The translations under genes were made by a program, and so were the position numbers. Source: Escherichia virus TH29. From it: DNA of 53,648 bases. The stretch's first letter is position 1, and each line of letters begins with the position of its first letter. Location of the stretch: sequence record MT446403.1; one strand, given 5' to 3'. The notes beneath the pieces are model-generated. The model saw nothing but the letters and a program-made list of their open reading frames with translations. It searched no databases and had not been told where the DNA came from. Below, piece by piece: positions 8,984 through 53,648 of this stretch.

Positions 8984-9000
8984 TCACATCCAACTAATGT
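8984..9000 (-). promoter_or_regulatory. Conserved motif copy tcacatCCAACTAATGT
   Basis: Just downstream (minus sense) of the RNAP terminator and upstream of the repeat-rich region. Confidence 0.45.
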
Positions 9001-11124: not shown

Positions 11125-11140
11125 TCACGTCCAACTAATA
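11125..11140 (-). promoter_or_regulatory. Conserved motif copy tcacgtCCAACTAATa
   Basis: About 70 bp upstream of the RNAP start codon. Confidence 0.45.
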
Positions 11141-11326
11141 TCACAAACCTGTGCCATTGTTAGCACAGCACAGGGACTTTGACCTTGACTCATAAGCGAA
11201 GCGCCTAACTTGGTGTTGTTTGAAAGCCGATAGGCTGCAGGAAAAAGTTGGGGCAGGGACCGTATTTAAGTCCGATAGGACGTTGGGCTTCCCCTCCCCG
11301 CCACCTCAAAAATAAAAATAATATCG

Positions 11327-11401
11327 CCACAATTCTAGTCTCGTCAATATCGTTACAATTCTAGTCTCATTAATATTGTAGCAATTCGAGTCTCATTAAT
11401 T
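11327..11401. repeat. Three tandem 24-25 bp direct repeats (iteron-like)
   Basis: ccacaattctagtctcgtcaatat / gttacaattctagtctcattaatat / gtagcaattcgagtctcattaatt, head to tail. Confidence 0.6.
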
Positions 11402-49674: not shown

Positions 49675-49769
49675 GGTGGACGAGGTTGGGTTCGAACCAA
49701 CGACACATCTGTTCGACAGATTGCTCTACCTGACTAAGCTCTGGAGCAGACCTTCTGAGCTACTCGTCC
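49675..49769 (-). ncRNA. tRNA-like element (possible pseudo-tRNA or non-canonical tRNA, anticodon region CGA)
   Basis: Minus strand has a perfect 7-bp acceptor-like stem (GGACGAG/CUCGUCC), T-arm GUUGG-UUCGAAC-CCAAC, D-arm-like GCUU-AGUCAGGUA-GAGC and a 4-5 bp anticodon-like stem with loop GUCGAAC, but about 21 extra nt 5' of the D-arm. Confidence 0.3.
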
Positions 49770-51707: not shown

Positions 51708-52085
51708 TTAGTGGCCTTGTAGGATACGTTTGTTCGCAGTTTCTGCGTCGATTCCCAAATCAACTAATGTAACCAAGCACTGTGAAATCCGCTCTTGCGC
51801 AGCTTTCTCCAGAATTTGGTATTTTTCGTCGTTAACGCCTAACACATTCTTGGCATGAATGAGTGTAGCCATTAGGCCATGCCCCAAAGCAACTGCTTGC
51901 ATTGCCTGGAGTTCAAAGTTGATTGTGATACCAGCGAGTTCATGCTCTTTCTGGATAATCTCAATCAACTCTTCTTTCGATTTGTCTTGTAAGTTCAAAA
52001 TGGAACTCCGTACATTGGCTGGTCTGTTGTCCAGCTGTAAATGAAAGATTTGGACAGAAGATGCTCGACTGGCTTGCCGAAGCAA
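51708..52085 (-). CDS. Hypothetical early protein
   Basis: 125-aa ORF; N-terminal extent uncertain because it overlaps the upstream ORF. Confidence 0.45.
   Translation of the reverse strand: MLRQASRASSVQIFHLQLDNRPANVRSSILNLQDKSKEELIEIIQKEHELAGITINFELQAMQAVALGHGLMATLIHAKNVLGVNDEKYQILEKAAQERISQCLVTLVDLGIDAETANKRILQGH
51755..51770 (-). promoter_or_regulatory. Conserved motif copy ccaaatCAACTAATGT (variant)
   Basis: About 55 bp upstream of the MSYHDDDK start, inside the 3' end of the upstream gene. Confidence 0.35.
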
Positions 52086-52285
52086 TATTCCATGAAGGAT
52101 GGGTTGTAGGTTGCATTGTTTAACAATTCTTTAATCGAATACTTATTCATAAAGAATGCAAACTTTGAGTCGCTTCCTTCCCAACCAAATATATAAAACT
52201 TTCCACCCAAGAAAGCAAATGCTTCCATCTCTCCTGTGTGAATATTACGGGCCTTAATGACCCGGATAGAATGTTTGCGAATCAT
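51995..52285 (-). CDS. Hypothetical protein, first gene after the right-hand non-coding region
   Basis: 96-aa ORF; ATG at 52283-52285 with GGAGAG RBS. Confidence 0.5.
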   Translation of the reverse strand: MIRKHSIRVIKARNIHTGEMEAFAFLGGKFYIFGWEGSDSKFAFFMNKYSIKELLNNATYNPSFMEYCFGKPVEHLLSKSFIYSWTTDQPMYGVPF

Positions 52286-52923
52286 AGGAACTCTCCAATT
52301 TTCGATTCGATGTTTGTGACGCTTCTCTCATCTTTTGGCCTTGTGGAAACAGCCACAGGGTAGCGCAGGAAGCCCGATTTCCGGGCCGTAGCCTACCGTT
52401 TGTGTCAATTCTGGATAACTGCATTGGCGAAGGGTTACTCCCGTTAGGGTGCGATACGCTAATCACATGAGTGTCGTCGCCTTACGGCTCAGGCGTGTCA
52501 CAGAGGCTTTGCAACCCTTCCCAATACATTCACCCAAATACCAGCTTTGGCGTAGCTGGTGGCTCTGTTTTGTGCGGATTATGCCACTCTAAGCCCTGTT
52601 TGTCCGACTTCCTCGGAGCACCAGCGGCTTGTGGCACAAACCTATTTTAGAATGACTAACATAAGCATGAGGCATAACCCTCTAATTATTCAGCCCTAAC
52701 AGCTTGCTTATTCAGTACCAATTCAACCCAATACATACACAACTATATACAATAGCGAACTATCTGCGAAAACTATCCGGCCCTATGGCCTAAGTTAAAG
52801 TTAATAGTGTGTGATGGAAACATTCCATCGAAAATAACTTTGCAGAATGAGTCGAACATTCTCACACGTCTAGCGGCCGCAACGGTCTACCGAGTTACAA
52901 AGTTATTATCTGATGTTGTTTCT

Positions 52924-53648
52924 TCAATTCCAACTAATGTCGAATACTCTTCTTGCAAACAGGACAAGTGATGAATCTGTATGCAAAGTATCCTCGGTCA
53001 TTCTTTCCTGTGTACATCTTTAAGTCAGAGAACACGTAAGATATTGCAGAGAAACATACCCACACTGGCGTGTGAATGTTACGTTATCCTTTTCCAAAAC
53101 TTTTATCATTTCAATTCCAACTAATGTTTCAGAATTATTCCAATATTCCAAACAAAAAGAATAATAAGAATAAATTAAAAATAAATGAAGAAAGTTCTTG
53201 ACACCCATTTGGCGATAGGTGTATAATGCCTTTCTTCCCTAAGAGGTCAGAATCAAATCCCACTAATGTTTCAGACGAAGTGCCGAAGGCGAATCCTCTC
53301 CCAAACCCGCTTGGAACAAGATGCCTCCGGCCTGGAACTATACTGCTTTCCAATCTGAATCAAACAGTTCCTTTGGTCTTGAATAAATTATCGAATTAAT
53401 TCCCAAGAAAGTGTGATTTCCATACTTCTTAACTTCCTGGTAAGCAAATCCATCTACCCAATTACCGCAGTGGGTTTTAATCTTTGTAGCAAACAGAATT
53501 CGGTAGTAGTGACCACGTGGCTGGTGGAAGAGAATATCTTCTGGCTTGATTGAGTTGATATTTAAATCAGACATTTAAGAACAATACCCCTTCGGAGAAG
53601 ATGTAGTCACTGCCGTAATCTTTGGTGATTGCATCCCAATCAATATAT
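52924..53648. repeat. Right copy of direct terminal repeat (identical to 1-725)
   Basis: Exact repeat of the left end, including the three motif copies, the sigma70 promoter (53198-53227) and the 78-aa ORF (53338-53574). Confidence 0.9.

Follow-up and report, generated by a model that had tools for sequence, protein, structure and literature searches.

What does the long gap in front of the first early gene of Escherichia virus TH29 encode? We analyzed sequence record MT446403.1, here called the window (53,648 nt), which is a complete phage genome with all real genes on the minus strand. BLAST grouped the region with the phiEcoM-GJ1/ST32/flopper-like myoviruses of the Chaseviridae, subfamily Cleopatravirinae. 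The window has an exact terminal redundancy of 725 bp (1-725 = 52924-53648). The initial annotation had placed a gap between the terminal repeat and the first open reading frame (ORF), and this was borne out. The gap spans 52286-52923, the first ORF starts with an ATG at 52285 on the minus strand, and no substantial ORF was present in the gap on either strand. The gap encodes a multi-domain structured RNA, which is read on the gene (minus) strand and is contiguous with the first ORF of the operon. The region is non-coding, is conserved throughout the subfamily Cleopatravirinae and consists of autonomous modules, namely a cloverleaf-like element, an invariant hairpin, a three-way element and three rod-like domains. 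It is an undescribed, family-wide structured leader RNA that matches no Rfam family. Three readings had been offered for the gap: early host promoters, a structured 5' RNA or a DNA-entry control region. The structured 5' RNA was strongly supported by covariation, by G·U pairs found only in the sense reading, and by the same helices in distant genera. The early host promoters were not supported.

Evidence for structure on the sense strand

Single-sequence minimum free energy (MFE) folding gave -208 kcal/mol (z = -4.2) for the minus-strand transcript and -185 (z = -2.2) for the plus strand. RNAalifold analysis of a 16-sequence alignment of close relatives gave -130.5 for sense versus -99.3 for antisense. 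In this alignment, 99.0% of the paired cells were canonical in sense and 88.0% in antisense; the antisense fraction was lower because 263 cells are G·U. Compensatory changes, in which both sides were altered and pairing was kept, were present in 20 of the 146 predicted pairs. When partners were slid by 1-3 columns, 2-5 pairs remained, and none of 500 column shuffles reached the observed value.

Nine lineages (the window, MLP1, TH37, Ecp_YSF, Aeromonas, 4HA13, Faunus, PM1 and the IMG/VR contig L042) were then folded singly, with a duplex view for seven of them. Each MFE fold recovered the long-range helix that closes one rod-like domain (domain 3 in the list below), with 25-43 bp and 1-8 G·U pairs. 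Domains 2 and 4 likewise kept their architecture across lineages. A covariance model (R1) was trained on close relatives only, with the domain 3 helix as its sole structure. It located the expected sites in L042, 4HA13, Faunus and phiA050, the Aeromonas and Erwinia sites being missed with default filters and found with filters off at weak E-values (0.06-0.08). PM1/PP101 were not recovered with filters off. Sense scores were 128-153 bits versus 22-30 bits for antisense at the same loci, and the antisense reading had four non-canonical pairs. In the covariance-model alignment with distant phages, 97% of the cells were paired and 17 of the 26 pairs were compensatory, versus 0-5 in slid controls.

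The region was 84-94% identical along its full length in 43 of the 50 matching phage records, and the pattern was mosaic. Blocks of 97-100% identity (alignment columns 326-400 and 551-575; window ~52640-52560 and ~52420-52395) alternated with segments that had been replaced outright by unrelated sequence of like length, where identity fell to 45-67%. A profile search found homologous but rearranged versions in further phages and in L042. The match was full length in Aeromonas phage phiA050 and covered the 5' and 3' parts in E. coli phage 4HA13 and in phiEcoM-GJ1; Erwinia phage Faunus and Pectobacterium phages PM1 and PP101 also matched. Five exact or degenerate motif scans of IMG/VR gave, beyond known isolate copies, just two Chaseviridae-like uncultivated contigs (L037 and L042); the remaining matches had no leader-profile match or were not taken further. 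One metagenome scan with the motif pattern returned 4 real loci and 28 coding-sequence false positives. Searches with the ArdA-like protein encoded near the gap gave five close relatives only (IMG/VR protein scan) and no additional lineages (tblastn). No match to the region was found in 5,426 E. coli genomes, which means that at the DNA level the RNA neither copies nor mimics host sequence.

A protein-coding reading was rejected. No small ORF was conserved in frame and extent among the 16 relatives, and substitutions showed no 3-nt periodicity (variable columns over the three frame positions: 9/5/11, 2/3/1 and 9/8/5). The 70-aa ORF at 52254-52466 had been called a chance frame, and the relatives agreed: their leader ORFs began and ended at different positions and used different frames. 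GenBank records of relatives (L007, L010, L163 and L164) place 'hypothetical proteins' of 30-50 aa in the homologous leader, in frames that differ between phages. The view that the leader is GC-richer than the genome was the half-right part of an otherwise sound observation, which was thus partly confirmed. It held for the gene-proximal 360 nt (52300-52660, 51.5% versus 43.9% for the genome; z = 2.0, top 2.3% of 360-nt windows) but not for 52661-52923 (39.5%). The whole 624 nt had 46.5% GC (z = 0.8).

No Rfam 15 family, including GOLLD, ROOL, riboswitches, ribozymes, 6S and tmRNA, matched anywhere in the window at the gathering threshold. At E <= 10, only chance-level matches were obtained in 52000-53400, and none in the homologous regions of five relatives. 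A riboswitch or attenuator was also rejected: 52286-52923 contains no sense-strand terminator, and the ribosome-binding site is unsequestered.

Modules of the leader

The features of the leader, in transcript order, are as follows.

52940-52924, minus strand: 17-nt motif ACATTAGTTGGAATTGA, directly upstream of the leader and at the inner edge of the 725-bp redundancy.
52833-52907, minus strand: variable cloverleaf-like (tRNA-like) module, with an extended closing stem, a T-arm GAAUG-UUCGACU-CAUUC and a variable middle arm.
52813-52829, minus strand: hairpin GAUGGAA-UGU-UUCCAUC, 7 bp with a 3-nt loop, invariant in the 16 relatives.
52779-52790, minus strand: short GGCC-loop-GGCC hairpin (helix 4), invariant.
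52661-52711, minus strand: 50-nt three-way element, with an outer stem AUAAGCA/UGCUUAU around two small hairpins and the conserved GGGCUGAAUAAUUAGAG.
52576-52642, minus strand: domain 2, a 26-bp hairpin rod whose tip (52603-52617) is a 5-bp stem with the pentaloop GGAAG.
52408-52540, minus strand: domain 3, a long-range helix of 26-28 bp (helix 14) with a conserved bulged G, closing a 72-nt interior.
52359-52397, minus strand: domain 4, hairpin GGUAGGC...GCGCUACC, with compensatory changes in helices 18 and 19.
52339-52359, minus strand: last hairpin, CCUGUGG...CCACAAGG (helix 21), upstream of the conserved GUCACA (52315-52320).
52283-52297, minus strand: ribosome-binding site GGAGAG (52292-52297) and ATG (52283-52285) of the first ORF.

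The conserved GAAGAAACAACAUC comes right after the 17-nt motif. The motif and the ensuing GAAGAAACAACATC were near-invariant in Escherichia and Aeromonas phages and, save for a 3-nt deletion, in the Erwinia phage. The cloverleaf-like module contains a tRNA-type T-arm, which stacks on the closing stem and has 5 bp in its own stem and a 7-nt UUCRANY loop. Its T-arm (helix 2) co-varied among relatives, with UA, CG and GC at one pair. The closing stem had a compensating change that was read from alignments (AACUUUG/CAAAGUU vs AGCUUUG/CAAAGCU). MLP1 and flopper have a different T-arm module in this place, and four metagenome contigs have a simple hairpin. The module was rejected as a tRNA: ARAGORN called none in the window or in 19 related loci, and Rfam RF00005 gave no match at E <= 10.

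The 7-bp hairpin was found in Erwinia phage Faunus and in 4HA13; in Aeromonas phage phiA050, one of its A-U pairs is changed to a sense-strand G·U. Helix 4 is invariant and therefore uninformative on structure. In the three-way element, helices 7 and 8 showed compensatory changes at 5 pairs. Its core motif was kept in the Aeromonas, Erwinia and 4HA13 phages and in L042, and a diverged copy was present in the Pectobacterium phages. The element lies upstream of the 17-nt motif in PM1/PP101 and L042, whereas it is downstream in the window.

Domain 2 was 97-98% identical among the 16 relatives. Its architecture was present in five lineages, where the tip stems co-varied (CCGA/UCGG, CUGA/UCAG, UUGAA/UUCAA and UUGGA/UCCAA) around a G(G/A)AAG loop. 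Helix 14 of domain 3 was supported in the alignment of close relatives as well. The interior of domain 3 has been swapped between phages, and at least four unrelated versions were observed. The commonest interior has a GUAA loop in the window or a GCAA loop in relatives, both of GNRA form by our own reading of the sequences. In phiEcoM-GJ1, an ORF labelled 'putative exonuclease SbcC' (L001, 1874-2275) lies within the leader and supplants part of the RNA. This inserted ORF matched a PHROG endonuclease (E = 9e-10) and, weakly, an HNH family, with no match in Pfam; it is probably a mis-annotated, free-standing homing endonuclease.

The GCCCG/CGGGC hairpin previously noticed at 52372-52386 turned out to be the tip (helix 19) of the conserved domain 4 hairpin, with compensatory changes. 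Equivalent hairpins follow a conserved ACAAACG in L042 and in the Aeromonas, Erwinia and 4HA13 phages, with a less clear fold in PM1. GUCACA precedes the ribosome-binding site in all lineages. The GGAG of this site is essentially unpaired in the consensus structure, and the surrounding AAAUUGGAGAGUUCCUAUG was invariant in the 16 relatives. On the plus strand, 52539-52571 contains a terminator-like hairpin with a T-run. It lies antisense within the leader and would halt transcripts that leave the early genes in the direction of the terminal redundancy.

The 17-nt motif and the genomic setting

A scan of the window with the 17-nt motif ACATTAGTTGGAWKTGA gave 11 matches, all on the minus strand, versus 0.23 expected by chance. 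They represent 8 unique copies, which are intergenic and on the gene strand, including 52924-52940, 8984-9000 and 11125-11141. The phiEcoM-GJ1 record annotates this motif as a 'putative phage promoter'. According to the ICTV profile, the promoters of chaseviruses are unidentified (PMC12842549).

The motif also occurs at repeat boundaries. In PYps23T, a close relative, the terminal repeat has been mapped by experiment and is 2,339 bp long (PMC8762354). It holds the RNA polymerase gene and matches ~11129-8996 of the window, ~8-10 kb from the gap. Both boundaries of the repeat are within copies of the 17-nt motif, at ...ATTAGTTGGA|. The 725-bp redundancy of the window ends at a motif copy too, 5 nt further on than the PYps23T boundaries, and the flopper record has an end in the same motif. 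Other repeats in the family are ~2.6 kb (Y2 and PM1) and 3,120 bp (4HA13, predicted and not mapped) (PMC8762354, PMC9699118). The 725-bp redundancy may reflect the use of different motif copies as ends, or it may have arisen in assembly, as an overlap that was cut at a repeated sequence. If it is an assembly overlap, the leader is internal to the virion DNA; the gap may thus be internal rather than beside an end. As the mapped repeat of PYps23T lies elsewhere, the premise of a DNA-entry control region is shaky. The motif itself may be a promoter, an end-processing site or both. The structural conclusions are independent of which reading of the terminal repeat holds.

A perfect sigma-70 consensus is present on the plus strand at 53198-53227 (also 275-304), consisting of TTGACA, 18 nt and TATAAT followed by GC. 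It is opposite to every gene, with no obvious ORF or terminator downstream. The same antisense-oriented promoter occurs in similar context in Pectobacterium phage PM1 (reverse complement of L048 ~1302-1335) and in L042.

Genes identified with Pfam are listed below.

48000-47350, minus strand: ThyX, early/replication gene.
46886-45123, minus strand: primase-helicase, early/replication gene.
45056-43122, minus strand: family A DNA polymerase, early/replication gene.
37988-35943, minus strand: terminase, structural gene.
35728-34412, minus strand: portal protein, structural gene.
32558-31551, minus strand: major capsid protein, structural gene.
12836-11721, minus strand: small subunit of ribonucleotide reductase (RNR).
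11144-9117, minus strand: T7-like RNA polymerase.
1246-644, minus strand: ArdA-like protein, a weak match under the Pfam cutoff.

All five annotated relatives examined (phiEcoM-GJ1, Faunus, 4HA13, PM1 and PP101) have a gene-free gap of ~0.6-1.1 kb. The gap lies after the anti-restriction gene plus one small ORF and before a series of small early ORFs. Some GenBank records of relatives call the ArdA-like gene a 'tail fiber protein'. A 43-aa ORF at 52934-53065 (minus strand) ends in ...CPVCKKSIRH and by eye resembles the C-terminal part of a small zinc-ribbon protein. Full-length versions occur as a cassette after the 17-nt motif in PM1 and as a 90-aa ORF in Ecp_YSF and FXie-2024a, and the ORF in the window may be truncated. 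Three tandem 26-bp repeats (AATATCGCCACAATTCTAGTCTCGTC and variants) are present at 11320-11397, shortly before the RNA polymerase gene with its copy of the motif. A degenerate tRNA-like sequence is located at 49677-49765 (minus strand). The acceptor stem is GGACGAG/CTCGTCC, the T-arm is good, the D-arm contains an insertion, and the 'anticodon' loop has 5 nt (UCGAA). The sequence scored 24.1 bits with the Rfam tRNA model (threshold 29) and was not called by ARAGORN. A tRNA-Arg or tRNA-Leu gene has been reported in some relatives and is lacking in others (PMC8762354).

Function of the leader and relation to known systems

The best explanation as a whole is that the leader is a cis-acting RNA of the early operon that serves as a processing and stability platform, to which we give about even odds (probability roughly 0.5). 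Transcription would probably start at or near the 17-nt motif at 52940-52924, a putative promoter of the phage RNA polymerase. The leader RNA would act in cis on the early transcript, whose operon starts with the ORF at 52285. The imperfect helices of 26-28 bp would be the functional core, as suggested by the free exchange of tips and interiors between phages. Helices of 20 bp or more fit the established picture of RNase III substrates. The untranslated helices of domain 2 (26 pairs) and domain 3 (26-28 pairs) exceed the length of ~20 bp expected for this enzyme. By analogy with the RNase III sites of the T7 early leader, these helices are most likely double-strand-specific processing sites. 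They may also be protective, setting the 5' end and the stability of the downstream message. The conserved stems, two of them longer than 25 bp, together with the swapped tips and interiors, favor such a cis-acting platform for RNase III processing and/or 5' protection. The open ribosome-binding site argues against an on/off switch.

Several points weigh against this explanation. The structure from the alignment fold and the covariance-model alignment were both fitted to the data that score them. Much of the covariation among close relatives goes back to a small number of recombined blocks that several phages share by descent, and the cell counts therefore overstate independent events. For both reasons, the tests in distant phages are the stronger evidence. 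Viable phiEcoM-GJ1 has an endonuclease ORF in place of the 5' half of domain 3, so that at least this domain can be lost under laboratory conditions. A simple processing helix would not require the loop-level invariance of domain 2 and the 7-bp hairpin; their near-invariance, loops included, suggests a specific protein or RNA partner. A literature search gave no chasevirus transcriptome and no description of the region, and we therefore infer the start site, the processing and the cis action.

The dispensability of domain 3 and the loop-level conservation keep alive a role in trans or in a ribonucleoprotein. Modules might be cut from the leader to yield stable non-coding RNAs with a function in trans; this idea is a doubtful but serious competitor. 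As decoys or sponges, the modules could possibly occupy a host protein that acts in defence or binds RNA; alternatively, they could be the RNA component of a phage ribonucleoprotein. The cloverleaf-like module would then be a processing handle or a tRNA mimic. The conservation of domain 2 and the 7-bp hairpin beyond the needs of a helix is consistent with this, and the T-arm could recruit tRNA-processing enzymes. The modules are swapped, lost and moved between phages like accessory or counter-defence loci, an ArdA-like anti-restriction gene is located just upstream of the region, and the insertion in phiEcoM-GJ1 shows dispensability. However, neither a terminator nor a defined 3' end precedes the ORF, there is no evidence of a discrete stable RNA species and no similarity to E. 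coli sequences that could be mimicked, and both tRNA detectors reject the cloverleaf-like module. A bolder version, in our judgment somewhat less likely again, is an unrecognized multi-domain non-coding RNA family of Chaseviridae (0.35-0.65 kb, the scale of ROOL and GOLLD), whose released modules act in trans in host takeover. Were it true, the RNA might work as a decoy, with a host nuclease or a defence sensor as its target, or as a scaffold for a phage ribonucleoprotein, and its exchangeable tips and tRNA-like module would be under arms-race selection.

Other readings fared worse. An antitermination or RNA polymerase-modifying leader, as in lambda nut/boxB and HK022 put, would fit the position right after a promoter-like motif and before the early operon. 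The tip of domain 2, with its 5-bp stem co-varying in five lineages and its G(G/A)AAG pentaloop, resembles boxB, whose loops are GAAAA and GAAGA. We consider it improbable: the hairpin is the tip of a 26-bp rod and not a free boxB, no boxA-like sequence was seen beside it by eye, and Pfam identified no N-like protein among the small early ORFs. In addition, the leader has 5-10 times the size of nut or put, and host-type antitermination would be irrelevant if the transcribing enzyme is the T7-like phage polymerase. A role of the region as DNA (a replication origin, a packaging or end-processing signal, a DNA-entry pause or single-stranded hairpins of the non-template strand) appears more remote. 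The gap adjoins the 725-bp redundancy in this record, the motif at its 5' edge coincides with the mapped repeat boundaries of PYps23T (PMC8762354), and the perfect inverted repeat GATGGAA-TGT-TTCCATC could bind a protein. Signals in double-stranded DNA, however, would not keep pairing through G·U changes on one strand, and these strand-specific wobble pairs disfavor a DNA-level role, although the sense strand might still, at low probability, function as single-stranded DNA. The long-range helices closing 70-90 nt and the GUAA/GCAA loops of domain 3 are RNA features, the physical ends of PYps23T are those ~8-10 kb away, and phiEcoM-GJ1 tolerates disruption. Least probable of all is that the gap is mainly a cluster of early promoters for host sigma-70, as in T7 A1-A3. 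Weak sense-strand matches are present at 52933-52905, 52770-52742 and 52606-52578, and by eye three divergent versions of the second each retain a -35/-10-like pair. The number of sigma-70-like matches in 51900-53648 was that expected by chance (4 versus 4.2), and the best sense-strand matches reached 9/12 positions. The weak minus-strand promoter flagged earlier does exist (CGGACA-17-CATAAT, 52606-52578, 9/12 positions) and is as unconvincing as it was said to be. This best-conserved candidate is buried in the invariant helix of domain 2 and is not kept in the Aeromonas homologue. The sole consensus promoter nearby (53198-53227) faces the other way.

Chaseviruses are common coliphages and biocontrol candidates whose transcription signals and early programme are uncharted. 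A conserved RNA of this size with covariation support is rare in easily grown E. coli phages. Natural variants that lack or swap modules (phiEcoM-GJ1, MLP1/flopper and the metagenome types) make its function directly testable by genetics. The function of large structured phage RNAs has been an open question since GOLLD and ROOL; for this one we infer a role in processing or stability, with a credible chance of something more unusual. The finding also corrects the short hypothetical ORFs annotated in the region in several GenBank records.

Among known systems, tRNAs and viral tRNA-like structures share with the cloverleaf-like module (52833-52907) a closing stem and a T-stem of 5-6 bp with a UUCGAnU loop; the modules of some relatives also have a 5-bp arm that ends in a 7-nt loop. 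Unlike tRNAs, the module has no D-arm of normal size, its closing stem exceeds 7 bp, it has no free 3' end, and its 'anticodon' arm has no U33 and is variable in both length and sequence; in some phages a plain hairpin takes its place. Lambda nut and HK022 put likewise have hairpins just downstream of early promoters, with a 5-bp stem and a purine-rich pentaloop, but the chasevirus hairpin is embedded in a 26-bp rod and the leader is far larger overall. Like GOLLD and ROOL, the RNA is phage-encoded, multi-domain and hundreds of nucleotides long; those RNAs are often beside tRNAs or tRNA-like elements and are of unknown function. It differs from them in giving no covariance-model match at E <= 10, in belonging to phages of Gammaproteobacteria, in being contiguous with an mRNA rather than a free-standing gene, and in forming a string of rods rather than a compact fold. 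Compared with the T7 early-mRNA leader (R0.3; R0.5-R1.3), the chasevirus leader is several-fold more elaborate: it has ~640 nt and 6-8 modules, among them a three-way element and a long-range helix. The two showed no sequence similarity, and the upstream signal of the chasevirus leader is a phage-type motif rather than sigma-70 promoters. Both leaders are untranslated, lie between early promoters and the first early gene, contain imperfect helices of at least 20 bp and leave the ribosome-binding site of the first gene free, in phages that encode a single-subunit RNA polymerase.

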